This document shows, in pieces, positions 1-17,454 of a DNA stretch of 17,454 nt (positions within the stretch are counted from its first letter, which is position 1; every line of letters begins with the position of its first letter). Position numbers and translations under genes: made by a program. A model generated the notes under the pieces. That model ran no database searches, was not told the DNA's origin, and saw only the letters and a list, made by a program, of their open reading frames with translations. This DNA comes from a virus (lineage: Duplodnaviria; Heunggongvirae; Uroviricota; Caudoviricetes). Location: the IMG/VR virus record IMGVR_UViG_2579778773_000004, positions 1 to 17,454 of that record; one strand, written 5' to 3'.

Positions 1-148
1 GTTATTACCCGATCTCGATGGAAGTTATTGAGTGATCTCCTTTCATGAAAATACGCATTAATAAACAGTTTCTCAATTATTAGTCAGCATCATCAGAAGA
101 AACCCCTCTCCAAAGATAATTTTATAAAATAATATAAATGTCCACGCC

Positions 149-210
149 TGGCACGGAGTAGACTGGCTATCTAAGCTAAAGGTCTGCTGTGAGCGAAAAC
201 CGGACATGTA
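149..210. repeat. Junction element copy A (core TGGCACGGAGTAGAC at 149-163, plus a GCGAAAAC box at about 193-200)
   Basis: Read directly: TGGCACGGAGTAGAC...GTGAGCGAAAACCGGACA. Aligns by eye at roughly 70% identity over about 55 bp with copy B at 2794-2866 (TGGCACGGAGCGGAC...GTGCGAAAACAGACA). Lies downstream of the 211-aa cargo gene on the - strand. Confidence 0.6.
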
Positions 211-516
211 CATATCTGTCAAAAAAGCAATTTTTAGCTGCCACTTCCAGTGGATGGCGGTCGGTCAGGAGATAATAGAAACAAAACATAATCATTAAAT
301 GACTGAAAAATGAAAATTGTATAAACATTCATCTTAGATGACAATTTCAAATGCATCTCTATAATTTCCCCTAGTTCAAACCAGACAGAATCTAACCACT
401 GCAAGTAGTTTTAAAATCATAGGAAAATAACGTGCATCAGCAGAAGCATATGGAAAATACACAACACATTTCAAAAATACATACTTTTAAAATTTTCATT
501 GACTGATATTTTTAAT

Positions 517-1152
517 TTATTTTCGTAAAAAAATCGACGCCCTATCCGGGTTTACTTTACATAGATGAGAAAGATATAGCGCCCTTCGATTAAATTTGCC
601 TTCAGTAAGGTCATCAATGTTTTTCCTGAATGGGTACTTAATCCGTGCAGCTATGTCAAAGTCACTAATGCTTGCATGAGCTTTGGTAAGTTTAGCTATC
701 CCATAAGTGCCATAGCCAAAGTAGCAACAGGATATATATGCTATGCAGATATCATCTGCTGTTGTTGCTTTCCTGATAAGAATGGCTAATATTTGCTCTC
801 TTATTTTTCTTCGAACTGTTTTCTCATATCTCTTAGTTATTGTTCTAACAAACTGTTGGTCTATAGTACTTGCGCCTTGATGAATGTTTTTAAATAATCT
901 CAGATATATAGTTCTTAAAATAGCAACTGGATCAACTCCCCTGTGTAATAGTTGCCGATGATCCTCAGCCACTCTTAATATATCAATTAAAGATAAAGAT
1001 ATAGATCTTTCACTTATCGAACTAAGCCTTATATAATCAATACATTTATAATAATCTTCCATAATACTTTTAACCCTGAATTTAAAAACCATTTCTGCCA
1101 ATAGCAAGTATGGCAATGACAGTAAGGTAATCAAAAAGCGCTTCGCTGCCAT
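517..1152 (-). CDS. Hypothetical membrane-anchored protein (cargo gene, 211 aa from the internal start MAAKRFLITLL...); second gene of a two-gene operon
   Basis: ORF track gives 517..1188 (223 aa). I prefer the ATG at 1152 because AGGAG sits 7 nt upstream (minus-strand reading CAGGAGACGTGAA-ATG). N-terminal hydrophobic stretch FLITLLSLPYLLLAEMVF suggests a TM helix or signal anchor. A 200+ codon ORF in very AT-rich DNA is unlikely by chance. No family recognised. Confidence 0.55.
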   Translation of the reverse strand: MAAKRFLITLLSLPYLLLAEMVFKFRVKSIMEDYYKCIDYIRLSSISERSISLSLIDILRVAEDHRQLLHRGVDPVAILRTIYLRLFKNIHQGASTIDQQFVRTITKRYEKTVRRKIREQILAILIRKATTADDICIAYISCCYFGYGTYGIAKLTKAHASISDFDIAARIKYPFRKNIDDLTEGKFNRRALYLSHLCKVNPDRASIFLRK

Positions 1153-1679
1153 TTCACGTCTCCTGATGTATCTGCAGCGGTGGACCAAAATTTGCCATGC
1201 ATAGCATCTGCATTCACCTTTTGGAAATACAGCAAAATGGTATAACTCCTTAACTCACCTTCCATTTTTATATTCAATGAGGCATGATTTTTCCTTAAGT
1301 AATTTCTCTTAATCACCCCTCGAACCTCTCCAATACTTCTATGCTTACCAGTGTATGGTCTTATATTATTATTGTTTTCAACGTCTTTTGTTTTCTCAAT
1401 AAACCCTTCAATATTATTGTTGTCACATATTAAAGTCAGTGTATAAAACGTTTTTAAATTCAAGTAAGGATTATACGCAGATTTTAGTGTTTTACATTCA
1501 ACTTCAAAGACGCCCGAAAAATTTGGTGGCGGTTTAATATATTCTTTGAATATAAAAATCAATACAGCCGCAATAAGAGTAGCAACAGCACCACTTAAGA
1601 TTTGATTTGTGGAAATAAAGGTTAGAGATGGCTCAAGCCATTCCCAAAATATGTTGAAAAAATCAGTAAATTTATTCAT
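1131..1679 (-). CDS. Hypothetical single-TM membrane protein (cargo gene, 182 aa); first gene of a two-gene operon
   Basis: ORF track entry. Hydrophobic segment ILSGAVATLIAAVLIFIF (residues about 27-45). Its 3' end overlaps the start of the downstream gene by 22 nt, suggesting translational coupling. Very AT-rich. RBS is weak (AAAGAAA). No family recognised. Confidence 0.5.
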   Translation of the reverse strand: MNKFTDFFNIFWEWLEPSLTFISTNQILSGAVATLIAAVLIFIFKEYIKPPPNFSGVFEVECKTLKSAYNPYLNLKTFYTLTLICDNNNIEGFIEKTKDVENNNNIRPYTGKHRSIGEVRGVIKRNYLRKNHASLNIKMEGELRSYTILLYFQKVNADAMHGKFWSTAADTSGDVKWQRSAF

Positions 1680-2076
1680 AAATTTCTTTTGATAGTATGT
1701 TTTTTATATGATGTTACATTTTTGAGAAAAAAGCAACTTCGCCGATTAAAAACTATCTCGCTGGAATTTATGGGCATCATGTTATGAATACATTCTTATC
1801 CCATAGGGAATAAAACCCTATCTATAGAATAAAAATCCAAATTTTATCTTAATAAATCAGATAAAAGATACTTATACTACAAAGGTACTTGTGTAAGATC
1901 AAACTTTTAATCCTATAAGTTATAGATTGAAGCAACTGTGACTTATAGTGCGCACACTTAAGAATCTCCGATGACGATGGTAGCAGGAGACAACTTTTGA
2001 CAACTCACTCCTATTACCAACTTACTGACTTGCTCCGCGTTGAGAGATTTATAGTTATGCCAGCACTGTCCGCTTC

Positions 2077-2116
2077 TGGCACATTGCGGAAGGGCTAACG
2101 GCCCGGAGTAAGTGAG
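2077..2116. repeat. Junction element copy D (TGGCACATTGCGGAAGG, with flanking inverted repeat TCCGC/GCGGA)
   Basis: Read directly: GTCCGCTTCTGGCACATTGCGGAAGGGCTAACGGCCCGGAGTAAGTGAG. Shares TGGCAC-N3-GCGGA with copies B and C. TCCGC (2069-2073) pairs with GCGGA (2086-2090). Lies downstream of the 171-aa gene. Confidence 0.45.
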
Positions 2117-2180
2117 TAACGGATGTTTGCAAGCACTCTTACTGCTGACAATGATCGCATCCAAGATAAAATAGGTGGTG

Positions 2181-2696
2181 TCAAGGTACAGGTTCACCAA
2201 TATAAGTGTGTGTGCAGCAACGACATGTCACCTTAACGTCATCTCTTGTGATTGAAAGGTTTACCTGTTGCAGAATTCCATTCTCATCAACAAACAGACC
2301 TGGGTAAAAACTGCTTTCACCAATGCAGACTAAATCCCTTCGCTGATGCTCATGTAGCGCGACCAACCAGAATACCGGCTCGGTGGTATCAAGACGTCCA
2401 CATACTTCGCTGAATATTTCATTCCACGGCTTGCCAATCTCTTTGATCAGAAAATAAAACAACGGTGTGTAGTCTCGGCCACGCTTCTGTCTGCTATGCA
2501 TTGTCTCGCGCTTTACCAGTAGCTCATCTCCGACTTTTTTGCGATTTCGTTCCCACCGATACTCAGCACCCGGATTATTAGAATGGTGCCGCGTCGTCGT
2601 GTTGACGCTGCGATATAGTTTACGGGACTTATTCTGCTGATGAATACGCATAGCTCGATCTCGTACATCCTTTCTTTTGTGGGCCAGTAGCCCCAT
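2181..2696 (-). CDS. Hypothetical highly basic protein (171 aa), cargo gene of unknown function
   Basis: ORF track entry. AAGG lies 8 nt upstream of the ATG at 2696. Local GC (near 47% by eye) is higher than the flanking AT-rich cargo. Arg/Lys/His-rich N-terminal half. No motif recognised; could be a nucleic-acid-binding protein or a decayed gene. Confidence 0.4.
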   Translation of the reverse strand: MGLLAHKRKDVRDRAMRIHQQNKSRKLYRSVNTTTRHHSNNPGAEYRWERNRKKVGDELLVKRETMHSRQKRGRDYTPLFYFLIKEIGKPWNEIFSEVCGRLDTTEPVFWLVALHEHQRRDLVCIGESSFYPGLFVDENGILQQVNLSITRDDVKVTCRCCTHTYIGEPVP

Positions 2697-2793
2697 TCAG
2701 ACCTTGTGTTACTGTATAAAAAATGAACACCCTTAAAGGCTGTATCATTCTGCTCAAATACCATCCTACTGACAACTACCAAAGGTCGGATTC

Positions 2794-2866
2794 TGGCACG
2801 GAGCGGACAATCAAGTAGAACTGAAGGCCCGCTATGTGCGAAAACAGACAGACACAGATTGATCAC
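2794..2866. repeat. Junction element copy B (core TGGCACGGAGCGGAC, plus GCGAAAAC box)
   Basis: Read directly. Begins 17 bp downstream of the stop of the HExxH gene (2883). Homologous by eye to copy A. Contains a weak inverted repeat AGCGG...CCGCT. Confidence 0.6.
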
Positions 2867-2882
2867 AAACATACCTGAACCA

Positions 2883-3812
2883 TCAGGATTTTATATCCTT
2901 GTGTGGCTCTAATCCTTCAGAAAGGACTTTATCAAATGCAGCATATTGCCTTTGTAATTTACTTTCACATTCATACAGACTCTTTAAACTAACATCATCC
3001 ATAGATTGAAAGAGTCTTTTGTTATCAACTAAATAGGAGTATGCATTAAAAATAGAAACATCCATTATATCTTTCAGTTCTTCATCAGATAGTTTAGTCT
3101 TTTTACTTAAATGCTTAATCACATGTGACTGCAATGCATTTGCGCGAACCATGGCGGGAGGATATTTGCTATTCTTCCCTTCCAATTTACATAGAAAATT
3201 AAAGAAAAAAAATATTGATGTTAAAGATAAACTAACAAGTGTTTTCTCTTCTATTTTTTTCTCCGGGGCCTTTTTTATTGTATTTAAGACGACATCTGCA
3301 ACAAAGTATGCTGAGAATACATCTGCATCATACTCCATTAATGTTTTAATCTGATCTTCACTAAAATCTTCATCGACTACATTGTACCCCATTGAATAAA
3401 CTTGGTAATCACCAATCAGGTTTATTTCTTTACTTTTGGCTAATGATAAGTGTCCACGAGCGACATGTCCAAGTTCATGACCGAAAATATGGTGCCAAAT
3501 AAAGACACACCCTAACGCAACTGGAGCTTCCTTTTCTTTCAAGTCAGGGTATTCTCTCATGAAGAATTCTATATTTTCAGAAAGAATGTCAAACGTTATT
3601 GGTATCAACCCACTCAATAAAATAATATGGAAATTATTGTCTTTTTTTTGTGCGTGAGCATTAAGGTTAAAATCGTCCTTAATGTGCAGAGCTATTTTTT
3701 TACCATCCTCTTCAATAGCGGAGTTTATCTCTATCAATCCTTTTTTGAAGGTATCGTAAACAGGCAAGAAAAAACCACTTTCTATTTTCGAAATTTCATC
3801 ACGGGTCATCAT
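2883..3812 (-). CDS. Putative HExxH zinc metallopeptidase (309 aa; motif HIFGHELGHVARGH), possibly ImmA/IrrE-like; standalone cargo gene
   Basis: ORF track entry. Tandem ATG ATG start with strong RBS (minus-strand TTAAAGGTGGAAAT-ATGATG). HELGH is a zincin-type HExxH motif in a hydrophobic context. A 309-codon ORF in very AT-rich DNA is unlikely by chance. The family assignment is from motif recall only. Confidence 0.7.
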   Translation of the reverse strand: MMTRDEISKIESGFFLPVYDTFKKGLIEINSAIEEDGKKIALHIKDDFNLNAHAQKKDNNFHIILLSGLIPITFDILSENIEFFMREYPDLKEKEAPVALGCVFIWHHIFGHELGHVARGHLSLAKSKEINLIGDYQVYSMGYNVVDEDFSEDQIKTLMEYDADVFSAYFVADVVLNTIKKAPEKKIEEKTLVSLSLTSIFFFFNFLCKLEGKNSKYPPAMVRANALQSHVIKHLSKKTKLSDEELKDIMDVSIFNAYSYLVDNKRLFQSMDDVSLKSLYECESKLQRQYAAFDKVLSEGLEPHKDIKS

Positions 3813-3869
3813 ATTTCCACCTTTAACATGAAATCTAATTCTAATTGATAGGTCTACTTAGTTTCGCTC

Positions 3870-3898
3870 ATTGTACTATTTTATTAAAGTGGGTTGAA
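3870..3898 (-). promoter_or_regulatory. Candidate sigma70 promoter for the HExxH gene (-35 TTCAAC at 3893-3898, 17-nt spacer, -10 TACAAT at 3870-3875, minus-strand reading)
   Basis: Read directly from the reverse complement of 3841-3935. An AT-rich UP-like stretch (CTATATAAAAATGTAA) lies immediately upstream. Implied 5' UTR is about 50 nt. Confidence 0.3.
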
Positions 3899-3935
3899 GG
3901 TTACATTTTTATATAGCATGTCTACTGTCCCTTTG

Positions 3936-3981
3936 TGGCACAGAGCGGACTGTCAGATTAGTTTTTACTCTGTGCCATAGA
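3936..3981. repeat. Junction element copy C: perfect 10-bp inverted repeat TGGCACAGAG / CTCTGTGCCA around a 22-nt loop; putative end-of-operon hairpin after G
   Basis: Read directly: TGGCACAGAG-CGGACTGTCAGATTAGTTTTTA-CTCTGTGCCA. Shares the core TGGCAC(R)GAGCGGAC with copies A and B. Lies 30 bp downstream of the G stop. No U-tract follows on either strand, so it is not a canonical intrinsic terminator. Confidence 0.55.
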
Positions 3982-4011
3982 TGAGTAATCTCACACCAGA
4001 TCTAATACGAT

Positions 4012-4590
4012 TTATTGTGGCATTTCAGGCCATTCTATATCCGGAGCATCTTCCGGCTGAACGCGATTCAGTAGCACACGGTATTTTTTCCAGTGTGTCA
4101 GACTTAACTTTTCTTCCTCGGTAGCCATATCTAAATCGACAGCATCCTGCAGCGTGGCAATAATTTCACCTGCATATGCAATCAGCTCTTTCTTCTGAGA
4201 GTCAGCCGCTCTGACAAGCGCATCACGCTCTGCATTCTCATCATTCACCCACGCATTTCCGTTCCATTTCTGATAATCCCCATCCGGGGAAATGGCTGTC
4301 ACGTCTGGAGGTAATGCGCCAAGTTCAGAAATATAAATGGCTGCTCCTGTTTTTGTTTCATAGACAGTCTTTCCACGATGGTCTTCCACCAGATCCCATT
4401 TCATTTCATCTGCATTGAAAACGGCGGCAAAACCCACCGGAATATCTGGAGGTGCAATGTCTGTACTGTTTGCAGGAAGACCTGTATGCGGCGGAATATA
4501 TGCGTCACTTTCGCCAATAAATTCATTGGTTCCATCAAGTAAATTGAAAACGCGGATAGTTTGTGTCTCTGCACTCATTCTGAAAGTCAT
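4012..4590 (-). CDS. G: Tail fiber assembly protein (chaperone), gpG-like
   Basis: Position immediately after H with a TAATG stop/start overlap. C-terminus ...[10 protein letters not shown] matches the conserved gpG C-terminus as I recall it. The N-terminal part is variable, as expected for the partner of the fiber tip. Start at 4590 is preferred (GAGG upstream); alternative ATG at 4578. Confidence 0.85.
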
Positions 4591-6365
4591 TATGCCAGCC
4601 TCACAATATAGTTATACGCAACGTTTTTTACGGTGTTCTCTGAATTACCTGTGGCACTTACAGTGACGGTATGACTATGCGCGCCAATCGCAATGGAATG
4701 GCTGTGAGCACCAATGCCAACCGTGTGATTATGCTGACCAATGTCGACTGTATGGGCGTGTGCTCCCGCAGAGCTTGACACCTGGTTGGTTCCTGATACC
4801 TGTACGCGTTGTTTACCCCCGATGGAGTCACCACCGTAACGACCACCGACAGTGTGTGTATGCGCTCCCGTATTGTTTGTCGTTTTTGTGCCGTGGTTAA
4901 ACGTGCTGACCGTTTTTGTCCCGTAATCAAACGAACTGGTTGTTTTCGTCCCTAAATCCGTACTGGATGCACTGGCACTGTGGGTATGTGATTTAATTCC
5001 GTCCTGTTCCTGTGATAATACGGCGCGACCACTGGCGGGTTTGCCCTTGATTGTCCAGCCGCGCATATCTGGAATCACCCCTGACGGATAAGCTACTGCA
5101 AGCAGGGGATAGGCTGCTTTATCAAAAGTCTGCCCCTGCATCAGGGCATAGCCTGTAGGTACTGAATCAGAAGGCCACGGGATTGGAGCACCTACCGGAA
5201 AGTTGTTGTACCCGTCATGATGAATCAACTTCCAGCCTTTAAAAACACCTGCGCAAACTGCCGCAAAACCGATTACATCTCCATTAAAATCAATGCCAAT
5301 AACAGTATTGTATCCCTGAGTATTGCTGTGTGCAGAGTTGATGTAGTGCTTCCAGGTGTGTCCTCCAGGCATTCCATTCTTTGCTGAGGAAGCATTAAAA
5401 AAGCCACCACGCGTACGTAAATCAGTAGCAATATCACTTATATTTTCGGCGTACTCATTTAATCCCGCTCCTTTAGGTACTCGCTTGTTTGCATTGTCAT
5501 TAGCAGCTTTCACTGCTTTCGGAGTCGCGGCAAGCGTTTCAGAATCGCTGTTGGTGGCACTACTTAGCTGGACAAGCCCTTTTCGTGCCGTGGTGGCGTC
5601 CTGTGCGGTGTATTTGCCATTAGCAAGGTCATATGCTGTCTTAACCGCCTTTGGCGTTGCTGCGAGCGTCTCAGATTCGCTGTTGGTGGCACTACTTAGC
5701 TGAACAAGACCTTTTCGCCCCGTGCTGGCGTCCTGAGCGGTATATTTTCCGTTAGCAAGGTCATACGCTGCCTTAACCGCCTTCGGCGTTGCGGCCAGCG
5801 TTTCAGATTCACTATTGGTCGCGCTGCTTAACTGAGTAAAACCTTTTGCAGTCAGTGAGGCGTCCGGATGGCGTCGTGACTGTTCGTGCTCTGCAATTTT
5901 GTCATCAACGTAATCCTGCGTCGCCATCACCGTTGTGGTGTCGATGGTCAGATCCACTGAGGCCACACTGCTGACGATAATGACCATGCGGCAGGTCTGC
6001 GAACGTCCTGAGCCTTCGGCAAGGGCAGGCTTATAACTTTCGGCCATGTTCGCCACGGCAATTAACGCACCGGTATCATCGTACAGACCAAGTTCACGCA
6101 TCCAGAAACCGCCCACCTCCGGCGGGATGACCAGCTCTGCGATAATATAATTACTGTGTCGATTGTCCTGACTGATTTTATTCAGGGCATGTCGCCAGAC
6201 CTCATTAACAAGTTTTGTCTGTCCGGCATCCGGCACCGGCAATTGACCGCCACCGTCCCCGACGGCCATCGTGGTAATGTTGACCTTCCTGCCTCCCGGT
6301 GCAGTCGCCGCTGCCAGCTTTGCTGCACCGGCGGTAGTGATAACGGTTTGGAACTTTACGCTCAT
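4590..6365 (-). CDS. H: Tail fiber protein gpH-like (591 aa); P2-like N-terminal region, divergent His-rich C-terminal receptor-binding region
   Basis: N-terminal [40 protein letters not shown]... matches P2 gpH by recall. Internal tandem repeats [20 protein letters not shown] (phage tail fiber repeat). C-terminal GAHxHTV / HSH repeats. Confidence 0.93.
5496..5843. repeat. Tandem repeats of about 132 bp (2.6 copies) inside H, encoding the tail-fiber repeat G(F/L)[42 protein letters not shown]
   Basis: Visible at both protein level (residues about 175-290) and DNA level (three near-identical blocks between about 5490 and 5845). Confidence 0.85.
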
Positions 6366-6375
6366 TATTCCTCAC

Positions 6376-6906
6376 TTATCCTGGGTAAACCGTAATAACA
6401 TCGCCGTCATAAGCCACACCACCGGCAAACAGATAACCGGGGATGTCCTGGGTAATATTCAGACCAATAAGGTGACGACTTGCAGGTTTGGCATCGGCAA
6501 TCAGCCGTTCCATTTCCAGATACATCTCCTCCGTGATGCCGCTTTCCAGTACGCCGATATCAAGCCGGAAGGTGCCGGGCGGGTCGCTGTTTTCCCACCA
6601 CTCCGTCACGTTGATGAGATAGCCGAGCGGCTCCACCACACGGCGAATCGCACCAATAGTGCCCTTATGGCAGTGAATGAAATACGCATCGCGGATAACG
6701 GCGCGTTTTGTCGCTTCCGGCCACTTTTCATCCCAGCGGTCAACCGAAAATGACCACGCCAGCCACGGCAGCAGATTTGCCGGACAGGTGTCCGGGTTCC
6801 ACAGCTCACGAATACTGACCGGCGTTTTTTCAATTTCCGCACAGGCTTTTGCGGCGGCAACTTCAAGCGGTGATGAGCCTGTCGGCAGCAGTCGCGAATC
6901 ATTCAT
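6376..6906 (-). CDS. I: Baseplate protein gpI-like (176 aa)
   Basis: Length and position (between J and H) match P2 gpI. Overlaps the J stop by 8 nt. Confidence 0.9.
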   Translation of the reverse strand: MNDSRLLPTGSSPLEVAAAKACAEIEKTPVSIRELWNPDTCPANLLPWLAWSFSVDRWDEKWPEATKRAVIRDAYFIHCHKGTIGAIRRVVEPLGYLINVTEWWENSDPPGTFRLDIGVLESGITEEMYLEMERLIADAKPASRHLIGLNITQDIPGYLFAGGVAYDGDVITVYPG

Positions 6907-7807
6907 CCGAGCCTCCGGTCACGACGCTGTATTCGGTACAGAAAGACGCCTGCGTACTGTTGAGCACGATGTCGGCCAGTGGTGCAGCCAGTTCGACACG
7001 CTGCACGCCTTCCACATGCAAAGCGGCATAAATGGCAGACAGACGGATGTCGCGCCCCAGCCGGTGCTGTGCCGTGATATACGCTTCCAGTTCTTTCACG
7101 GCGGCCGCGCGAATGGGTTCTCTTTCAGGACCAGGGTAAAGGTAAAGCGTGGCGTTTATCTGGTATTCAACGATGGCAGCAGACTGCACGTTCACACGAT
7201 CGGCCACCGGTCTGACGTCCTCGCCATTAAGGGCGTTACGCACCACAGCCAGCAGGTCTTCGGATGCGACACCGTTATTTTCACGTGACAGCACAGAGAT
7301 GGTGACACAGGCCGGAGACGGACTGGTGACAGAGATATCCGCGACACGCCCGTCGGCACTGCGACCATGATACTGATAGGCGCCCACCGACCCGGCGACG
7401 CTTAAACCTTCAAACGCCTGCTGAATACGCAGACGATAATCCGTGTCAGATTCCATCACTGCCGGTGTCGGCGGGATGGTCGAATCATCTGCCGGGGTGA
7501 TAATCAGGCGCGCGGTGTTGTAATTGGCACCAATCACATCAAGGTCATTACCAGCGGCACAGGCCAGCATCACCGCCCGTGCGGCCTCATTCACACGCTG
7601 ACGCCAGATAAGCTCACGATAAGCATTTTCCTCCAGCAGTTTGACGAGAGGCTCGGATTCCAGCGTCAGGGTACGGGCAACCGCCTCCTGCTGGTCTTCC
7701 GGGTAAAGGGAAATCAGTGTCGCCTTGCGTTCGGCAAGAATGGTTTCAAAGTCCAGCTCCTCGACCACATCCGGTGCGGGTAGCTGGTTCAGGTCGATAA
7801 TCGGCAT
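6899..7807 (-). CDS. J: Baseplate wedge protein gpJ-like (302 aa)
   Basis: Length (302 aa) and synteny W-J-I match P2 gpJ. Sequence MPIIDLNQLPAPDVVEELDFETIL... recognised as gpJ-like. Confidence 0.93.
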   Translation of the reverse strand: MPIIDLNQLPAPDVVEELDFETILAERKATLISLYPEDQQEAVARTLTLESEPLVKLLEENAYRELIWRQRVNEAARAVMLACAAGNDLDVIGANYNTARLIITPADDSTIPPTPAVMESDTDYRLRIQQAFEGLSVAGSVGAYQYHGRSADGRVADISVTSPSPACVTISVLSRENNGVASEDLLAVVRNALNGEDVRPVADRVNVQSAAIVEYQINATLYLYPGPEREPIRAAAVKELEAYITAQHRLGRDIRLSAIYAALHVEGVQRVELAAPLADIVLNSTQASFCTEYSVVTGGSDE

Positions 7808-7811
7808 GGTT

Positions 7812-8159
7812 TCAACTCACAGGGATGGTTAACGAAAGTTGCTGGCCGGTGTCGTTGTGCTGGCCGTTTAACGTAACTGTCATTCGCCCGTCAAAACTGC
7901 GCTCAGTGGTGACGGATGACAGGGTGACGCGGGGTTCCCATTTCAGCACCGCCATGTAACAGGCGACCTTAATCTGCAACTCAAGCGCCGGGGTCTGCGG
8001 CTGGTCAATCATTGACGCCAGCAACGAGCCGTAATCACGACGCATCACCCGTGAGCCGACCGGTGTGCGCAGGATATCGCCGATACTCTGGCTGATATGC
8101 TCAAGGTCAGTGACAGTCAGGCCATCACTGCAATTCATTCCGAGATAACGCGCTGTCAT
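7812..8159 (-). CDS. W: Baseplate wedge protein gpW-like (115 aa, gp25-like)
   Basis: Length (115 aa) and synteny V-W-J match P2 gpW. Start overlaps the V stop. Confidence 0.93.
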   Translation of the reverse strand: MTARYLGMNCSDGLTVTDLEHISQSIGDILRTPVGSRVMRRDYGSLLASMIDQPQTPALELQIKVACYMAVLKWEPRVTLSSVTTERSFDGRMTVTLNGQHNDTGQQLSLTIPVS

Positions 8160-8791
8160 AGAGGACTCCCGGTTGTGCCGCCGCTGTCGCCGGGGTGTTT
8201 ATGGGTATGCAGCACCTTACCGTTTGATGAGAGTTCACCACCGGTGTGTTCAATGTTGCCGCGCATCGTCCCACCCTTCTGCACTTCCAGCGTGCCGGTA
8301 GTCAGTTTGTTAGTGCAGACCACCTCCGGTGTGTCCAGGGTGACGCGGGTTGATGCTTTCACCATGACCACCGGCACCGTGGCAGTAACAGAATCAGAAG
8401 CCGTCACGCTGGCCGTTTTAATTCCGCTTACCGTGAGTGCACTGGTTTCGGGTTCATACTCAATCACCGCCCCGTCAGGGAAACGGATATGCAGGGCATC
8501 CGCCGACGCAGACGGCGCGGGGTTATCGCCGGAATAAATCCCCGGCAGAACGAACGCCGTGTCGAGTTCACCGCCCACAGCCAGAATCAGCACCTGTTCC
8601 CCCACGGAAGGTGCCCACCATGTGCGCGAACGTCCGGCACGATGGGTCAGCCACTGAAGCCAGTCGGTGCACATGCCGCCGGTCTGCACACGGCAGCGAC
8701 CGGCGTTAAGGTCGGTTTCGACGATAATGCCGGTGCGGATCATGTTGCGCAGTGCGCGCGCGAGTTCCTGAATATTTGCGAGAGTGTTCAT
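8156..8791 (-). CDS. V: Baseplate spike / assembly protein gpV-like (211 aa)
   Basis: Length (211 aa) and synteny match P2 gpV. A 66-bp gap from S contains a GC-rich hairpin; this is the expected site of the V late promoter. Confidence 0.93.
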   Translation of the reverse strand: MNTLANIQELARALRNMIRTGIIVETDLNAGRCRVQTGGMCTDWLQWLTHRAGRSRTWWAPSVGEQVLILAVGGELDTAFVLPGIYSGDNPAPSASADALHIRFPDGAVIEYEPETSALTVSGIKTASVTASDSVTATVPVVMVKASTRVTLDTPEVVCTNKLTTGTLEVQKGGTMRGNIEHTGGELSSNGKVLHTHKHPGDSGGTTGSPL

Positions 8792-8803
8792 AACGGGAAG
8801 GAT

Positions 8804-8826
8804 GCCGCCGGGTCATACCGGCGGCA
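8804..8826 (-). other. GC-rich hairpin (GCCGCCGG-N7-CCGGCGGC) in the S-V intergenic gap; possible terminator or attenuator between late operons
   Basis: Perfect 8-bp inverted repeat read directly at 8804-8811 and 8819-8826. Not followed by a clean U-tract. Confidence 0.3.
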
Positions 8827-8857
8827 ATGTGACGATGAGGTGTCAGGAATGGCACAA

Positions 8858-9310
8858 CTAACGGTCGAGGTGAGCCAGAATAATCTCTTCAATCATCTGC
8901 ACATCCTCACCGGTAAAGCCGAGCAGAGGACGCGCCGGATAATCAATTTTCTTACCGTCTTTCCGGGTTTCTTCCGACAGACCGAACTGATGCACGCTGG
9001 CGATTTTCGGTGACTTCCCGCCGTAAAACTCCATTGATGCCTGTTCCGGGCTGGCGTGGATATGCAAAAAACGACTGGTGATAAGTTTCGCAAACATTTT
9101 TCGCTTAACACGACCAGTCTTTTTTCTGGCGCTCTGCTGCTGGCGTGGCGCGTAGGGTGTGCCGTCCGGGGCTTTCTGAGCCATCACCCGACGCTGCTGA
9201 CTCTGCCGCAGACGCTTCGCCAGCTCTGCACTCAGCCGCCGACGCCCTGACGGTGACAGCGACTCAATAAGTCCGGTCAGCCGGTCTTCAAAACGCTTAA
9301 ACTCATTCAT
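8858..9310 (-). CDS. S: Tail completion protein gpS-like (150 aa)
   Basis: Length (150 aa) and synteny R-S-V match P2 gpS. Start overlaps the R stop. Confidence 0.93.
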   Translation of the reverse strand: MNEFKRFEDRLTGLIESLSPSGRRRLSAELAKRLRQSQQRRVMAQKAPDGTPYAPRQQQSARKKTGRVKRKMFAKLITSRFLHIHASPEQASMEFYGGKSPKIASVHQFGLSEETRKDGKKIDYPARPLLGFTGEDVQMIEEIILAHLDR

Positions 9311-9770
9311 CCCACTTGCTCACCAGTTCGCCATTGATATAAAGCTCCATCGGGCGGGTGACCGGCTCCGGCGGCGTGGGTTCCGGGATATTCTTCACAT
9401 GCAGCGCGCCGTCCACCTCACTGACCAGCGTGCGCTCGGTCAGCATCAGGCTGATGCTGATATCAAAGCTGCTGTCATTGTTGATGTCTGCATAAAACGT
9501 GAAGCCCTTTTTCTGGCCTTCGTCGGTGGTCATGATGTCGGGCTGATTTTCCCGCAGCCACGCCAGCACCGGCACGATGAGCAGGTCAAAATCACCGGTA
9601 AAGTCGGTCACAATGACATTGAGCGTGTAACGCTTTTCGAATGACAACGACGCCGCCAGTGTGGAGGCAATACTCCCGTTATCCACGAATATCCGCAGCA
9701 TATCGGGGTTAGTTTTCAGCACCGTGACGGCATCAGTCAGCGCCCTGCGCAGGCTGTCGGGTTTGAGCAT
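9303..9770 (-). CDS. R: Tail completion protein gpR-like (155 aa)
   Basis: Length (155 aa) and synteny lysB-R-S match P2 gpR. Confidence 0.93.
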   Translation of the reverse strand: MLKPDSLRRALTDAVTVLKTNPDMLRIFVDNGSIASTLAASLSFEKRYTLNVIVTDFTGDFDLLIVPVLAWLRENQPDIMTTDEGQKKGFTFYADINNDSSFDISISLMLTERTLVSEVDGALHVKNIPEPTPPEPVTRPMELYINGELVSKWDE

Positions 9771-10023
9771 CGTTTTCGTCCTGACAGTGTTTAATCATTT
9801 TTACCTGGCTGGCACAACGTGCCAGCGCGTTCTCGAGCTGCCGGATATCGGCACTTAAATCGCCGTTCGTCTCCGGGTCACTGCCCGGCATCGGGCAAAG
9901 GCTCACTTTCGGGCAGGCGTTGGCGACAATCACTGGCGTCGGTGCAGGCGGGGCGCTGGTGCAACCGGCGCACAGCATCAGGCAGGTCAGCACCGTACCA
10001 GCGGCGAAAATCTTCGTTTTCAT
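9733..10023 (-). CDS. lysC: LysC, Rz1-like outer-membrane lipoprotein spanin (96 aa), nested out-of-frame in the 3' part of lysB and extending into the 5' end of R
   Basis: Internal start MKTKIFAAGTVLTCLMLCAGCTSAPPAPTP... at 10023 (ATG read at 10021-10023 on the minus strand). Lipobox LCAGC followed by a Pro-rich region. The track ORF (135 aa) is an upstream extension; 96 aa matches P2 lysC. Confidence 0.8.
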   Translation of the reverse strand: MKTKIFAAGTVLTCLMLCAGCTSAPPAPTPVIVANACPKVSLCPMPGSDPETNGDLSADIRQLENALARCASQVKMIKHCQDENDAQTRQPAQGAD

Positions 10024-10303
10024 TAAGTAACCTCGTGATGGTTTTCTCGCGCTGTGCTTCACGCTTCGCGGCGTTCTCCAGTTCCTGACGCAGTGCCACC
10101 TGCGCCAACTCGTTTTTGTCTGCCCTGGTGAGGGCAGCATGAAGCTGATTTTTCAGCATGATGATGGTCGTCTGCTGTTCACTGGCGACGTTGTTCACCC
10201 TGTCCAGCGAGGCGCGCAGGCTGGCGTTTTCATGCTTCGCCAGAAACAGTCCCGCCACCGCCAGCGATAACAACACAACCAGCACAATCATCAGCTTTGA
10301 CAT
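9878..10303 (-). CDS. lysB: LysB, Rz-like inner-membrane spanin (141 aa)
   Basis: N-terminal TM MSKLMIVLVVLLSLAVAGLFLA followed by a charged, coiled-coil-like region. Length and position match P2 lysB. Confidence 0.9.
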   Translation of the reverse strand: MSKLMIVLVVLLSLAVAGLFLAKHENASLRASLDRVNNVASEQQTTIIMLKNQLHAALTRADKNELAQVALRQELENAAKREAQREKTITRLLNENEDFRRWYGADLPDAVRRLHQRPACTDASDCRQRLPESEPLPDAGQ

Positions 10304-10716
10304 GGTTCCCGCCCCTCAAGACGCTGACGGCAGGCCGTGCGTATCAGCCGGAAAAACAGCGACGCCACGAGATAAATCAGCGCAGTAAAAATCCACCCGG
10401 TGGCAACCAGCGAGATAAACGTCGCCACCATCACTACCAGAGCCGCCGCCCGTCTGCACCACGGCACCGGCTGCAAAAACAGCGACGTGACAATCTTCAC
10501 GGCCAGCGATTCCGGTGGCAACTCCCGCCCGTAGCGTTCCAGCACATACTCCGTGGCATACACGCCAACACCACCGGCAACCACACAGATAACCGTCACC
10601 AGAATCGCCCAGGCAGCGACAAAATTGACGGCCACGCTCTGCGGGTAAATCAGGGACAGTGCCAGCATCAGCGCCAGCGACACATTCAGCATCAGTGAAA
10701 GGGATAATTTCTTCAT
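10291..10716 (-). CDS. lysA: LysA, multi-TM lysis-timing protein (141 aa)
   Basis: Several hydrophobic segments. Length and position after K match P2 lysA. Confidence 0.88.
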   Translation of the reverse strand: MKKLSLSLMLNVSLALMLALSLIYPQSVAVNFVAAWAILVTVICVVAGGVGVYATEYVLERYGRELPPESLAVKIVTSLFLQPVPWCRRAAALVVMVATFISLVATGWIFTALIYLVASLFFRLIRTACRQRLEGREPCQS

Positions 10717-10730
10717 GGTGTTTACTCCGT

Positions 10731-11228
10731 TTAAGCCAGTACGCCGCCAGCGGTACGCCAGACGGTGACCAGTTTTTCCAGTGAATGCTCACGCTGACCG
10801 TAACCGGCACCCGGCAGGGACGCCCAGATATTTCGACAGCGTGAAATGGCGCGCTCAATACGTCCCGCCCGGATGTCATCCAGCGCACCGCGTTCGCGGA
10901 TCAACTGAATGGCGAGTCTGTCCTGTGACAGCGGACTGAAATCCGGCAGGGCAAGCTGTTTGCGGTAATGCGGCCAGAACAGGTAAAGCTGCTGATAGCG
11001 ACCGGAGGCCGTGGATTTTTCACCGCGACGGTTAAACACCTTCGCCGGTCGGCCATGTGCGAACGGGTGGTCACTGTAGTCGGTGAAGATTTCCGGCTTC
11101 CCGTCCAGTCCGGTGACTATCACGTCATAGCCACGGTTTTTCGTCAGCGGATGATTCGCCGTCCCTTCGGACACCGCCAGCATGTCGAGAAAGGCGGCGA
11201 TATTCTGGTGCGTGTTAATTACCGGCAT
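10731..11228 (-). CDS. K: Endolysin gpK-like (165 aa)
   Basis: Length (165 aa) and position after the holin match P2 gpK. Sequence MPVINTHQNIAAFLDMLAVSEGT... recognised as the P2-type endolysin. Confidence 0.93.
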   Translation of the reverse strand: MPVINTHQNIAAFLDMLAVSEGTANHPLTKNRGYDVIVTGLDGKPEIFTDYSDHPFAHGRPAKVFNRRGEKSTASGRYQQLYLFWPHYRKQLALPDFSPLSQDRLAIQLIRERGALDDIRAGRIERAISRCRNIWASLPGAGYGQREHSLEKLVTVWRTAGGVLA

Positions 11229-11509
11229 TACGGTTTCCCCCTGCCCTTAAAGCGGCGCTGAATGGCAATCTCAATCACCTGATAACCGGCGATACCCAGC
11301 ATGGAGCCGATGCCGCACACCGCAGGCAGTGACAGGTCAGGAAACTGCACCAGAACAACACCGGCAACCATCGAGACAAAACCACCGAGCAACATGCGCC
11401 CGATAAACAGACGCGGGGTGATGGGTTCACCACCGGCAAGCACCTTGCCGACAACAATCAGCACCCCAATCATGAAAAGCGACAGGACGCTTTTTTCTTC
11501 TGCTGTCAT
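11228..11509 (-). CDS. Y: Holin gpY-like (93 aa)
   Basis: Small protein with hydrophobic TM segments and a basic C-terminus (RRFKGRGKP). Length and position match P2 gpY. Confidence 0.92.
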   Translation of the reverse strand: MTAEEKSVLSLFMIGVLIVVGKVLAGGEPITPRLFIGRMLLGGFVSMVAGVVLVQFPDLSLPAVCGIGSMLGIAGYQVIEIAIQRRFKGRGKP

Positions 11510-11512
11510 GCG

Positions 11513-11716
11513 TTACTCCCACAGATTGACAGTTTCAGCCACGGGCGCGGTCTGAACGTCGGGCAGTTCGACGGCGGTGCCGTGTGGCAGCACCGCACCC
11601 AGTTCAGCCAGTCCCGGATTTGCGGCGAGCACGGTCTCAACCACGCCCTCAGTGCGCCCGTAATACCGGACACAAATGGCGTCGAGCGTGTCGCCCTGTA
11701 GCGCAAAGGTCTTCAT
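11513..11716 (-). CDS. X: Tail protein X-like (67 aa from internal start MKTFALQGDTL...)
   Basis: The track ORF (90 aa) is an upstream extension through L. The ATG at 11716 overlaps the L stop (ATGA). 67 aa matches P2 gpX. Confidence 0.88.
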   Translation of the reverse strand: MKTFALQGDTLDAICVRYYGRTEGVVETVLAANPGLAELGAVLPHGTAVELPDVQTAPVAETVNLWE

Positions 11717-12225
11717 CAGATTTGACTCACGATGCAGCGCGGCTTGTCCTGGATGCGCGCCACTGCCCAGCGCATATCCCGCCACAACTCATCAATGGTG
11801 CTGTCAATGCTGTCGGCCTTCTTGTCGCCTTTCGCACTGGCATCCACGCCGCGGTAACGCTCATAAAGCGACGCGGTCGCCATCGCACACACGGCGCGCT
11901 CGTAGTAAAATACTTTGATGCTTTCACCGTCGATGTCGTCCGCCGGGACGTCCGCCAGACGCGTAAAACCGGCGGCAATTTTCTGTTCGCGGTACTCGTA
12001 CAGCTCCGCATTCGTCTCCGCCATACCTGACTTGATGGCCTCACGCAGACGGGCGGGGGCGACGGTCTGCTCAAGGCGCATACGTTCCCGGACGCGCTTC
12101 GGGTCGATATCGGGAAAAAAGAACGTGTTTTTAATCACCGGCTCGTCGCCTGCCGGTTGCGGGATGACCACCGTACCCTCACCGGATACAGGAGCCTCCT
12201 TTCGCGGAATAATCAGCGTCATCAT
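11716..12225 (-). CDS. L: Head completion / stabilisation protein gpL-like (169 aa from internal start MMTLIIPRKEAP...)
   Basis: The track ORF (189 aa) is an upstream extension. Tandem ATG ATG at 12225-12220 on the minus strand. 169 aa matches P2 gpL. Confidence 0.92.
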   Translation of the reverse strand: MMTLIIPRKEAPVSGEGTVVIPQPAGDEPVIKNTFFFPDIDPKRVRERMRLEQTVAPARLREAIKSGMAETNAELYEYREQKIAAGFTRLADVPADDIDGESIKVFYYERAVCAMATASLYERYRGVDASAKGDKKADSIDSTIDELWRDMRWAVARIQDKPRCIVSQI

Positions 12226-12324
12226 GACTACCTCTGAAAAGTCGGGCGGTGGACGCCGGTGCAGTGTCAGATGATTCACCCTCACTGACCGGCGTGCCGC
12301 CCTGGCGCGGGGCGCATTCGGTTG

Positions 12325-13068
12325 TTAACTGGCTTTCTTTTTCGGGCGTCCACGTTTTGCCGGGGTCACGCTCCGGGTCTTACGCGGGGTGCGGGTGACC
12401 GCTTTGGGCTGCGGCTCCGGCTTCGGTTTCAGCTCCCGCTCCAGTCGTTCAATCTCTTTTTTAACGCCTGCCTGACAGTCGAGCTGTGTCGCACGTTGCA
12501 GGTGCGCCAGCGCACCGGCGGCATCACCAGCGTCACGCAGAAACAGACCGGTGATTTTGTGCAGATTTGCGCGCACTTCATCAGGCATGTCAGCCGTGGC
12601 GGTCAGTTCAAGGGTGTCCGTCAGCAGGCGGGTATCCACGGATTCACCGGCAGCGTGGGCGCGCATGGCCGCGAGCGCGACCTCCTCGGTGAACATGTAC
12701 GGCGGGGTGCGGCGGTGTTTACCCGGCATGGTCAGACCGTACTTCAGGGCATAACGGGCAATCTCCAGCGCACCGGCAATATCGCCGGTATCCAGACGCC
12801 ACAGCATGACCGTCATCAGAATGTCATCCTGTGCACCTTTGCCCTGCTCCAGCACGCCGTTCACCCACGGCAACCAGAACGGCAGCAGTTCGCGTTTTTT
12901 CGCGGCCTTCAGCTCTTTTGAATAAATCGCTTTCAGTGTGCGCTGGTCTGCGGCGAGCTTAACCAGCATCTGCTCATAGACAGTTGCATGTCGCAGCGGG
13001 GCGGCTTCCCGCTGCGCGGTCATCGCTGCCGAGACCCGCATCATGTGGCGCTGTGCGGGACTCGTCAT
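12325..13068 (-). CDS. M: Terminase small (endonuclease) subunit gpM-like (247 aa)
   Basis: Length (247 aa) and synteny N-M-L match P2 gpM. Basic C-terminal tail. Confidence 0.93.
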   Translation of the reverse strand: MTSPAQRHMMRVSAAMTAQREAAPLRHATVYEQMLVKLAADQRTLKAIYSKELKAAKKRELLPFWLPWVNGVLEQGKGAQDDILMTVMLWRLDTGDIAGALEIARYALKYGLTMPGKHRRTPPYMFTEEVALAAMRAHAAGESVDTRLLTDTLELTATADMPDEVRANLHKITGLFLRDAGDAAGALAHLQRATQLDCQAGVKKEIERLERELKPKPEPQPKAVTRTPRKTRSVTPAKRGRPKKKAS

Positions 13069-13071
13069 CGG

Positions 13072-14145
13072 TTACGCTCCCGGCTCTGCGGTCGCTTTAG
13101 CCGGTGTGGAGAAGTCACCGACCTTGATTTTTTCCACCAGACAACCGGCGGCGTAGTCTTCCACCACGTAATCAATGTTCATTGACTCGTAGTTCTCCAC
13201 GCGGTCGAGTTTCGGGTTTTCCTCAATCACGCGGCGATGGCTGTCATCCATGTAGTAGATGGACAGGTTTTCCAGCTTCGTGATGAGCATCGCATCCGCC
13301 GGGAAGTACGGGACGCGTACCGCTGGCAGGTTGCCGATGCGTTTCTGGCTGATGATGACGTCAGCGGCCAGCATTTCGCTGTTGTCCTGCTCCTTGTTGA
13401 CGATGGGAAAATACTTGTCCGCCAGTAGCTGACGTCCCACAATCACCACAAGGTCAGGTTCTTCCTGATACCACGGCTCAATCAGGTTGTTGGTCGCATC
13501 CATCACCAGTGCATCAAGGCTGGCATAATCACCGCCCTTACCCACGCGGATGACCTCAGAGGTGGTGCGGCCTTCCTCGTCAGTGACCTTGCTCATCACG
13601 CGCGCCGGGGCTTCATTGCGGTATTTCTGCAGCCAGCCGACCGCCACATCCTGCAGCATCGGATTACTGTTGCGGTCAGAGGTTTCGGCACGCTTCACGC
13701 CGTTAAAACCGGCCATGATGAAATCAAGGGACTGGCGTTTGATAATGGCGTTACGGATACGGAGCTGGAAATCCTGATAACGCGCCCACAGGTCCAGCGT
13801 TTTGTAGCGGATATAAAAATCGAAGTTAACCTGGTCGCATTCGTACTTGTTTGACGCCAGCTTCGAGAAGTCCTTCGGCTGACGCTCGGTGCCACCGGCG
13901 GTGTCGGTGGTGCTGGCAATGGGGCCGGTGACACCGATACCAATTTTTTCCCCTTTCATTTCGCTGACCGGCACAATGTTGATGCGGGTCAGAAAGTCAG
14001 AGGACTCCTGCATGGTGTTCATCAGGGTCTGGGTGACCGACGGTTCAACGGTGAATTTTTTCGACACATCACCGGCGTCGATGCCGTTCAGTTCGGCAAC
14101 ACGGGACAGGTAGGCATTAAATTTAAAACGGGTTTCCTGGCGCAT
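13072..14145 (-). CDS. N: Major capsid protein gpN-like (357 aa)
   Basis: Length (357 aa) and synteny O-N-M match P2 gpN. RBS AGGAAC lies 5 nt upstream of the ATG. Confidence 0.96.
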   Translation of the reverse strand: MRQETRFKFNAYLSRVAELNGIDAGDVSKKFTVEPSVTQTLMNTMQESSDFLTRINIVPVSEMKGEKIGIGVTGPIASTTDTAGGTERQPKDFSKLASNKYECDQVNFDFYIRYKTLDLWARYQDFQLRIRNAIIKRQSLDFIMAGFNGVKRAETSDRNSNPMLQDVAVGWLQKYRNEAPARVMSKVTDEEGRTTSEVIRVGKGGDYASLDALVMDATNNLIEPWYQEEPDLVVIVGRQLLADKYFPIVNKEQDNSEMLAADVIISQKRIGNLPAVRVPYFPADAMLITKLENLSIYYMDDSHRRVIEENPKLDRVENYESMNIDYVVEDYAAGCLVEKIKVGDFSTPAKATAEPGA

Positions 14146-14203
14146 ATTTGTTCCTGAAATTAAGGGTTAATCGTGAAGGTTTTCCCGGACTGACTGACGC
14201 CGG

Positions 14204-15058
14204 TCAGCAGTTCGTCATCAGGGCGTCTCCGCCACCGCCGGTGGCCTTGCTGCGGCGCTGCTGGGTCAGACTTTCGGTGTTGTCGAGACTGTTTTTCAGG
14301 CGGGTGAATGCCTGGCTGGTTTCATCCGCCCTGTCAGTCACCTCCTGCTTAAGTGCGGAAAAGGCGTTTTCCATCTCAGCGAGGCGCTGCTCAGTGGCGC
14401 TCAGTTTTTCCTGCACATGTTCAGCAACAGCGGTCACCGCTTCATGCACGTCATTCAGACGGGCGTCATCGCTGGCCTGTTTGCGGCCAAAAATGGATTT
14501 CACCTTTTCGGTCAGGGCGGTGAACACGGTTTCAGGCAGGTCTTCAAATTCCAGCTCAACGGGCGTTGCCACTGAAATCAGGTTTTCAGGGCTTAATTTG
14601 AAGCGGTTCAGGGGGTTGTGTTTTGCCGTGCGGCAGAATTCCAGGTATTCCGTGCCGAGGCTTGCCGGGTCATCGGTGACGGCCAGACCCACCAGATAAC
14701 ATTTGCCGGTATTGGCAAAGTTCGGCTGAATTTCCATTGAGGTGTAGACCTTCTGCGCGGCCTTGTTCATCGCGATAAGGTCATCGGTCGGGGTGATTTT
14801 CGCAAACAGCGCCCATTTGCCTTTCAGCGCCGAATCATCGTCAATCTTTTCGGCCTTCAGTTCGACCACATCGCCATAACGCTTAAAAATACCGTCAGGC
14901 AGGATGCCGCGCAGATGTTCCAGGTTAATGCGGCAACCATAGACTCGCGGGTCAAAGGTTTCGGCCATTTCCTGAATATCCTGCGCACTGATGACACGCC
15001 CGTCACAGGTGTCACCCTCAACGCCGATACGAAAGAATTTTGAGACTTTTTTTGCCAT
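14204..15058 (-). CDS. O: Capsid scaffolding protein gpO-like (284 aa from internal start MAKKVSKFFRIGVEGDTCDGR...)
   Basis: The track ORF (306 aa) is an upstream extension. ATG at 15058 (CAT read at 15056-15058). 284 aa matches P2 gpO. Confidence 0.93.
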   Translation of the reverse strand: MAKKVSKFFRIGVEGDTCDGRVISAQDIQEMAETFDPRVYGCRINLEHLRGILPDGIFKRYGDVVELKAEKIDDDSALKGKWALFAKITPTDDLIAMNKAAQKVYTSMEIQPNFANTGKCYLVGLAVTDDPASLGTEYLEFCRTAKHNPLNRFKLSPENLISVATPVELEFEDLPETVFTALTEKVKSIFGRKQASDDARLNDVHEAVTAVAEHVQEKLSATEQRLAEMENAFSALKQEVTDRADETSQAFTRLKNSLDNTESLTQQRRSKATGGGGDALMTNC

Positions 15059-15231
15059 TGTCAGGAGTCCTGAATAGTGATTAGAGGAGTCACATGTCGG
15101 CATCAGTTTCCCGACGATGCGCATCCTCTGCCATCAGTCCCGGATGGCTTATCACTGACACAACAGCACCTTAGCGAATCGCGGGGCGCGACTCAGTAGC
15201 CTTGCCGTGTATTCATCACGGCGAGGTATTC
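15059..15231. promoter_or_regulatory. Divergent late-promoter region between O (-) and P (+); expected site of Ogr-dependent late promoters
   Basis: Established P2 biology: the P-Q and O-to-S operons diverge from this intergenic region under Ogr-activated promoters with a TGT-N12-ACA element near -55. Partial dyads seen: TGG-N12-ACA at 15145-15162 and GTCGG-N10-CCGAC at 15096-15115. No exact TGT-N12-ACA found by eye. Confidence 0.5.
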
Positions 15232-17004: not shown

Positions 17005-17454
17005 TGAGCAAGAAAAAAGGGAAAACACCGCAACCTGCGGCAAAAACAATGACCGCCAGCGCCCCGAAAATGGAGGCATTCACCTTTGGCGAGCCGGTGC
17101 CGGTACTCGACCGCCGTGATATTCTGGATTACGTCGAGTGCATCAGTAACGGCAGATGGTATGAGCCGCCGGTCAGCTTTACCGGTCTGGCGAAAAGCCT
17201 GCGTGCTGCCGTGCATCACAGCTCGCCGATTTACGTTAAACGCAATATTCTGGCTTCAACGTTTATTCCGCATCCGTGGCTTTCTCAGCAGGATTTCAGC
17301 CGCTTTGTGCTGGATTTTCTGGTGTTCGGCAATGCGTTTCTGGAAAAGCGTTACAGCACCACCGGCAAGGTCATCAGACTGGAAACCTCACCGGCAAAAT
17401 ATACCCGCCGTGGCGTGGAGGAGGATGTTTACTGGTGGGTGCCTTCCTTCAACG
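17004..17454 (+). CDS. Q: Portal (capsid vertex) protein gpQ-like, 5' partial (first 150 codons; continues past window end)
   Basis: Open frame from the ATG at 17004 to the window end (MSKKKGKTPQPAAKTMTASAPKMEAFTFGEPVPVLDRRDILDYVE...). Not in the ORF track because no stop lies in the window. The P-then-Q order matches P2. Confidence 0.92.
   Translation, partial: MSKKKGKTPQPAAKTMTASAPKMEAFTFGEPVPVLDRRDILDYVECISNGRWYEPPVSFTGLAKSLRAAVHHSSPIYVKRNILASTFIPHPWLSQQDFSRFVLDFLVFGNAFLEKRYSTTGKVIRLETSPAKYTRRGVEEDVYWWVPSFN

Follow-up and report, generated by a model that had tools for sequence, protein, structure and literature searches.

Organisation of the H/G locus in a P2-like prophage

The window, that is, the whole stretch of 17,454 nucleotides analysed here, holds on its minus strand the late region of a prophage of P2-like type (Peduovirus), in which a tail-fibre gene, H, and a tail-fibre assembly chaperone gene, G, form part of a V-W-J-I-H-G operon (Table 1). 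A tblastn search with every P2 late protein identified Q, P, O, N, M, L, X, Y, K, lysA, lysB, lysC, R, S, V, W, J and I in the P2 order and at 94-100% amino acid identity. All 18 of these late proteins near H/G are full-length, with Q represented by its first 150 residues where the window edge cuts it. V, W, J and I lie directly upstream of H, which sits right after I, and are 96.5-97.7% identical to their P2 counterparts. At the DNA level, positions 5507-17454 are approximately 96-97% identical to sequenced peduoviruses. The G+C content is 0.45-0.51 in the swapped block that carries the fibre tip and G, compared with 0.55-0.60 in the backbone. The stop codon of H overlaps the start codon of G (TAATG at 4590), an arrangement also found in the Stf/Tfa (orf-194) pair of lambda, and a scan for promoters and terminators around G gave nothing better than shuffled controls. 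In the S-V interval (8792-8857), the non-essential P2 gene orf30 is missing, as it is from phages fiAA91-ss and STYP1.

Table 1. Positions of H, its domains, G and the adjoining cargo genes in the window
Feature	Description	Window position	Strand	Support
H	Tail-fibre gene, intact 591-aa ORF	4590..6365	-	Pfam: Phage_tail_fib, Phage_fiber_2 x3, Collar
H residues 1-151	P2-type N-terminal (baseplate-attachment) domain	5913..6365	-	PF12571, E 6.6e-58
H residues 168-299	Three tandem 44-aa Phage_fiber_2 repeats	5469..5864	-	PF03406, 3 stretches, E 3.7e-61
H residues 298-388	91-residue orphan insert, predicted compact beta-rich knob-like fibre domain	5202..5474	-	
H residues 389-459	Collar domain, start of T4 gp37 / lambda Stf-type cassette	4989..5201	-	PF07484 at residues 392-439
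H residues 460-591	Needle, six HxH motifs (predicted Fe2+ sites), C-terminal end NYIVRLA	4593..4988	-	Aligned to 2XGF
H residues 505-535	Distal loop lying between the second and third HxH motifs, presumed receptor-contact surface	4761..4853	-	Equivalent of T4 gp37 tip subdomain 932-959
G	192-aa assembly chaperone for the tail fibre (lambda Tfa type), coupled in translation to H	4012..4590	-	PF02413 (Caudo_TAP), E 3.4e-40
Downstream junction	Return to P2-like DNA over the final 8 codons of G (EWPEMPQ and stop) and ~85 bp of intergenic sequence	3927..4035	-	blastn 82.6% to P2 15251-15358; 88% to fiAA91-ss over 3933-4035
Cargo ORF, 309 aa	HELGH (HExxH) motif	2883-3812	-	
Cargo ORF, 171 aa		2181-2696	-	
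Cargo ORF, 182 aa		1131-1679	-	
Cargo ORF, 223 aa	Partial PBP-type glycosyltransferase domain	517-1188	-	PF00912, E 1.8e-22

Domain structure of the tail fibre

The N-terminal domain of H was recognised by Pfam with a score of 195.4 bits against a cut-off of 23, and is 86-93% identical to that of P2 H in 30-residue windows. It is followed by three Phage_fiber_2 repeats, detected by TRF with a period of 132 bp and 2.5 copies (5518-5847); P2 carries two such repeats, and the third copy is common to fiAA91-ss and to STYP1, a Salmonella phage of the genus Peduovirus (fibre gp31, assembly protein gp32) whose fibre also combines a P2-type N-terminus with three repeats. H is collinear with P2 H over residues 1-251 at 91% identity. 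Beyond residue 251 no alignment with P2 H was obtained apart from repeat self-matches, and the P2-type C-terminal receptor-binding half is absent, the C-terminal 420 residues of P2 gpH being unrelated to H. Collinear DNA homology to P2 stops slightly earlier, at window position 5638 (residue 243), while relatives such as fiAA91-ss and STYP1 remain collinear to approximately residue 298. The initial annotation, which was made from the sequence alone, had let the resemblance to P2 gpH run to about residue 265; this is roughly right, because the third repeat continues after residue 243. It had also described a mosaic of two parts, of which the P2 N-terminus and the foreign tip stand. By sequence comparison, however, H is better divided into three or four modules, namely a P2 part (residues 1-297), the 91-residue insert between the two parts (298-388), a collar (389-459) and an HxH needle (460-591).

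Over residues 379-591, H matches the gp37 tip of T4 for which a crystal structure is available (2XGF, chain 19-242; E-value 1.3e-74), so that the likeness of the two tips is not due to chance. The Collar domain scored 39.3 bits (cut-off 24). Six HxH motifs, GAHSHTV among them, start at residues 460, 502, 536, 545, 554 and 563 (window 4671-4988), and 13 of the 22 histidines of H fall within the last 153 residues. The HxH repeats previously noted between 4665 and 4991 are thereby located to within a few bases, and their likening to metal-coordinating repeats of other fibre tips is borne out by the homology to the iron-binding motifs of T4 gp37. Besides these motifs, H shares with the T4 tip the collar and the NYIVRLA end; it differs from the T4 fibre in its proximal 380 residues, which are P2-type and not gp37. 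The side-tail fibre of lambda, Stf (orf-314), belongs to the same collar and needle family (collar 80-96% identical), but it has eight HxH motifs, a distal region longer by approximately 40 residues and a different N-terminus, on a siphovirus tail.

H, T4 gp37, lambda Stf and three P2-like relatives were aligned over the tip, and the alignment was mapped onto T4 numbering. Identity between H and gp37 amounts to 58/71 residues in the collar (811-881), 32/50 in the N-terminal stem, 3/28 in the tip subdomain (932-959), 26/50 in the C-terminal stem and 14/17 at the C-terminal end. Six of the seven T4 HxH motifs are kept in H, and the missing one, H929/H931, is the rung next to the tip. The relatives STYP1, P24A7b and Chuche have six motifs each. 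In T4 gp37, seven iron ions are bound octahedrally by HxH motifs from all three chains (PMC11705849, PMC6116203; octahedral HxH-Fe sites are also described in PMC6957217), and replacement of the iron-binding residues H929 and H931 by alanine abolished plaque formation (PMC6957217). From the six conserved motifs, six Fe2+ sites are predicted in the H needle.

Among the ten T4 residues at which alanine is lethal (list from PMC6957217), three are kept in H (G938, G942 and G943), and none of the three residues of the T4 OmpC patch (K945, I951 and Y953) is conserved. The scaffold is conserved in the alignment, and the presumed receptor-contact loop (approximately residues 505-535) is unlike that of T4. 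In 30-residue windows covering it, the loop is 100% identical to that of STYP1. A model of H residues 290-591 predicted by AF2 from the single sequence had a pLDDT of 33 and was discarded, so the needle fold is assigned here by homology.

The insert between the repeats and the collar

The segment of H between the P2-type part and the tip (window 5202-5474) gave no DNA match by blastn in the phage relatives compared, and STYP1 carries another segment in its place (10-26% identity over residues 301-390). No Pfam family was assigned to the insert, and a search of its profile against PDB sequences returned no relative (best E 0.76). At the protein level, tblastn among 50,697 phage records yielded three weak hits, the best of them, at 41% identity, being the distal subunit of a long tail fibre in a Vibrio phage; 5.8 billion proteins searched by word index yielded a single partial Enterobacter protein; and an exhaustive HMMER search of 1.84 billion representatives yielded 31 clusters. 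Members of these clusters carry the segment at varied positions within long fibre proteins that contain T4 gp36, T7 tail-fibre, P2 Phage_tail_fib or endosialidase-chaperone domains.

With an alignment of 18 sequences, AF2 gave a confident, compact, beta-rich domain (pLDDT 86, pTM 0.78, monomer prediction). The knobs of R-type pyocin fibres (PDB 6CL6; knob domains of these fibres are described in PMC6116203) and other fibre or receptor-binding protein knobs show 11-16% sequence identity to the insert, and the likeness, seen in a monomer prediction, is at the level of the fold only. The insert is read here as a predicted knob-like fibre domain. Its origin is separate from both the P2 part and the tip, and its role is most likely structural. 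It is rather improbable, in our estimation, that it represents an uncatalogued and sparsely distributed knob family which moves between P2-, T4 gp36-, T7- and endosialidase-chaperone-type fibres and which could bind as well, making a second site of the sort suggested for Knob2 in R-type pyocin fibres; if it did, host recognition would involve two separated sites and not the gp37-like tip alone.

The assembly chaperone G

The PF02413 domain of G spans residues 72-192 and scored 137.7 bits against a cut-off of 22.1; the Tfa protein of Mu (5YVQ_B) also matches G (E 3.2e-10), while gp38, the chaperone of T4, is weakly similar to the Tfa-type G. Identity reaches 66% with lambda Tfa (residues 1-191), 95% with G of Peduovirus P24A7b and 93% with G of STYP1, whereas P2 G can be aligned over residues 123-192 only, at 46% identity. 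Since G resembles the P24A7b, STYP1 and lambda proteins over its full length, the whole gene is of the lambda Tfa lineage, and its C-terminal likeness to P2 G reflects a conserved domain of the family at large. G had been read earlier as a conserved C-terminus joined to a new N-terminus. The WPEMPQ end is indeed there, as in P2 gpG, which ends EWPEMPQ, but the gene as a whole is lambda Tfa-like and only the last eight codons are P2-like DNA.

According to PMC9608196, citing North et al. (2019), the C-terminal domain of Mu Tfa drives trimerisation and its variable N-terminal domain binds the distal fibre. The N-terminus of G had been described earlier as variable and matching the divergent tip. 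In P24A7b and Chuche, however, residues 1-80 of G are 85-95% identical to those of the present protein and the tip loop is 36-40% identical (for P24A7b, 95% over G and approximately 36% in the loop). The N-terminal domain is therefore conserved where the tip loop diverges, and G does not co-vary with the hypervariable loop. Its N-terminus follows the conserved collar and stem, and the comparison suggests that G recognises these rather than the loop.

Recombination junctions and direction of exchange

In blastn comparisons with single relatives, P2-type homology ends at 5491 (fiAA91-ss) or 5475 (STYP1), at the end of the third repeat. DNA homology to STYP1, P24A7b (84%), Chuche and lambda has a common start at 5201-5202, at the first collar residues; with STYP1, identity is 96% over positions 4011-5201, which hold the tip and G. 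At the protein level, the collar, needle and tip of H are 97.6% identical to those of STYP1, and 100% identical over approximately residues 451-591. On the far side of G, P2-like DNA resumes as listed in Table 1. Breaks of this kind demonstrate recombination at conserved sequence.

The horizontal exchange of a receptor-binding module put forward in the initial annotation is upheld by this comparison: the backbone is 94-100% identical to P2, H has no P2 similarity after the repeats, G belongs to another lineage and the G+C content drops. Full-length collinear identity with P2 gpH and gpG, which would contradict such an exchange, was absent, H being collinear to approximately residue 251 and G over residues 123-192. 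What was exchanged is a known receptor-binding cassette, and the comparison does not polarise the direction of the exchange (import versus ancestral state). That P2, lambda, Mu, P1 and T-even phages trade tail-fibre genes with one another has been recognised from the early 1990s onwards. A precedent for a mosaic gpH is the P2-like phage L-413C (PMC7460101).

Distribution of the cassette

Cassettes of the same type are carried by phage Chuche and by Peduovirus P24A7b, and T-even and lambdoid phages have them at 55-84% identity. NCBI lists the exact H protein under the name 'phage tail protein [Escherichia]'; it is present on 35 contigs and stands alone in its cluster at 90% identity. G belongs to a cluster of 143 members, which come from E. 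coli, E. albertii and E. marmotae. Of 5,426 complete E. coli genomes, 3,597 have related sequences for collar and needle (80-90% identity), and the H/G DNA itself is in strain CE0011b only, at 100% identity. In the locus taken from that strain (its positions 8178-11802), an IS2 element is inserted inside the 3' end of G, at the equivalent of window positions 4060-4065 (approximate), and RefSeq splits the identical 1,776-bp H into three pseudogene fragments, where the window has one open frame.

Proposed assembly of the fibre and its receptor

H and G very probably constitute the receptor-binding fibre and assembly chaperone of a P2-like prophage whose fibre is recombinant and bears a T4/lambda-type tip. 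The P2-type N-terminal domain and the three repeats (residues 1-297) would anchor the trimer on the P2 baseplate and supply the proximal shaft, and the knob-like domain (298-388) would come next along the fibre. The distal 203 residues would form the collar and then the needle, in which each HxH motif, contributed by three chains, would coordinate one Fe2+ octahedrally, giving six sites where T4 has seven. Contact with the host receptor would be made by the distal-pole loop (about residues 505-535). G, translated by coupling to H, would bind the distal fibre through its N-terminal domain and drive trimerisation through its C-terminal domain; like metal binding, this mechanism is one that we infer from the homologous systems. 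The cassette was very probably exchanged at conserved sequence, with junctions where the last fibre repeat ends, where the collar starts and in the conserved 3' end of the gene for the chaperone.

The receptor may reasonably be inferred to differ from those of P2 and T4. Because STYP1, whose recorded host is Salmonella Typhi, has an identical tip, the comparison suggests a surface structure common to Escherichia and Salmonella; a literature search for the receptor of STYP1 returned nothing useful. It was also considered whether the fibre still targets the receptor class of P2 (LPS core), the host range being then not really changed. T4 gp37, the structural homologue of the tip, binds LPS glucose as well as OmpC (PMC6957217), which lends this some plausibility, but the C-terminal half of P2 H has no sequence similarity to H, the distal loop departs from that of T4 as well (the three identities in 28 given above) and the identical tip is borne by a phage whose recorded host is Salmonella Typhi, and we judge a retained LPS specificity to be unlikely.

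It is improbable, too, that H and G are what is left of a defective prophage in decay and no longer make a working fibre. The left edge of the window is an end of ISEc12, a foreign low-GC cargo follows G, and the 100%-identical copy in CE0011b has IS2 in G and an H annotated as pseudogene pieces, all of which would fit decay. In the window, on the other hand, both genes are uninterrupted and stop/start coupled, the 18 neighbouring late proteins are full-length and close to P2, and another gene call on the CE0011b chromosome gives an identical intact 591-aa H. Since IS2 cuts G in CE0011b, activity of this prophage lineage is nevertheless not guaranteed. That the variable C-terminus belongs to a host-range segment that can be inverted or switched, as with Mu G or P1 C, was rejected as extremely improbable. 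The Phage_fiber_2 motif ahead of the junction does resemble the border between constant and variable parts in Mu S, but no inverted repeats flank the tip or G (the sole pair within 1-6500 is AT-rich, 18 nt long and located at 1077/1445), a second tip/tfa set in opposite orientation is absent, and the downstream ORFs lack recombinase domains.

A recombinant fibre of this composition is a new combination of known modules, a case of textbook phage mosaicism and no new kind of system. Its value is mostly one of annotation, in that a precise domain map and exact junctions are provided for a natural P2-backbone fibre with a T4/lambda-type tip and Tfa, and a small fibre domain that lacks a Pfam family is flagged. 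Maps of this kind, with natural splice points where the collar starts and at the 3' end of tfa, help in the design of chimeric P2, pyocin or lambda fibres with a new host range.

The cargo region downstream of G

Positions 57-3930 of the window, between G and the tail-sheath gene, at the site occupied by fun(Z) in P2, hold a low-GC (30-35%) cargo with four minus-strand ORFs (Table 1); STYP1 has no cargo between G and FI. A PADLOC search with the cargo ORFs returned 0 hits, and NCBIfam gave no names for the 309-, 171- and 182-aa proteins. The cargo may be an uncharacterised defence or lysogenic-conversion cassette. All four genes are 100% identical in E. coli NB4833, where they lie outside any P2 context. 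The piece at 2062-2809 (46% GC), which holds the 171-aa ORF, is also present by itself in many E. coli chromosomes (approximately 96% identity), where its annotation is hypothetical protein, and because it is found separately elsewhere the cargo island is itself mosaic. The first 56 positions or so do not belong to the cargo and match a multicopy element; 1,703 E. coli genomes carry it, with a median of 3 copies and on plasmids as well as chromosomes. The match in strain SFE8 lies just upstream of istA of ISEc12, a member of the IS21 family, and the window therefore begins within the end of an insertion sequence.
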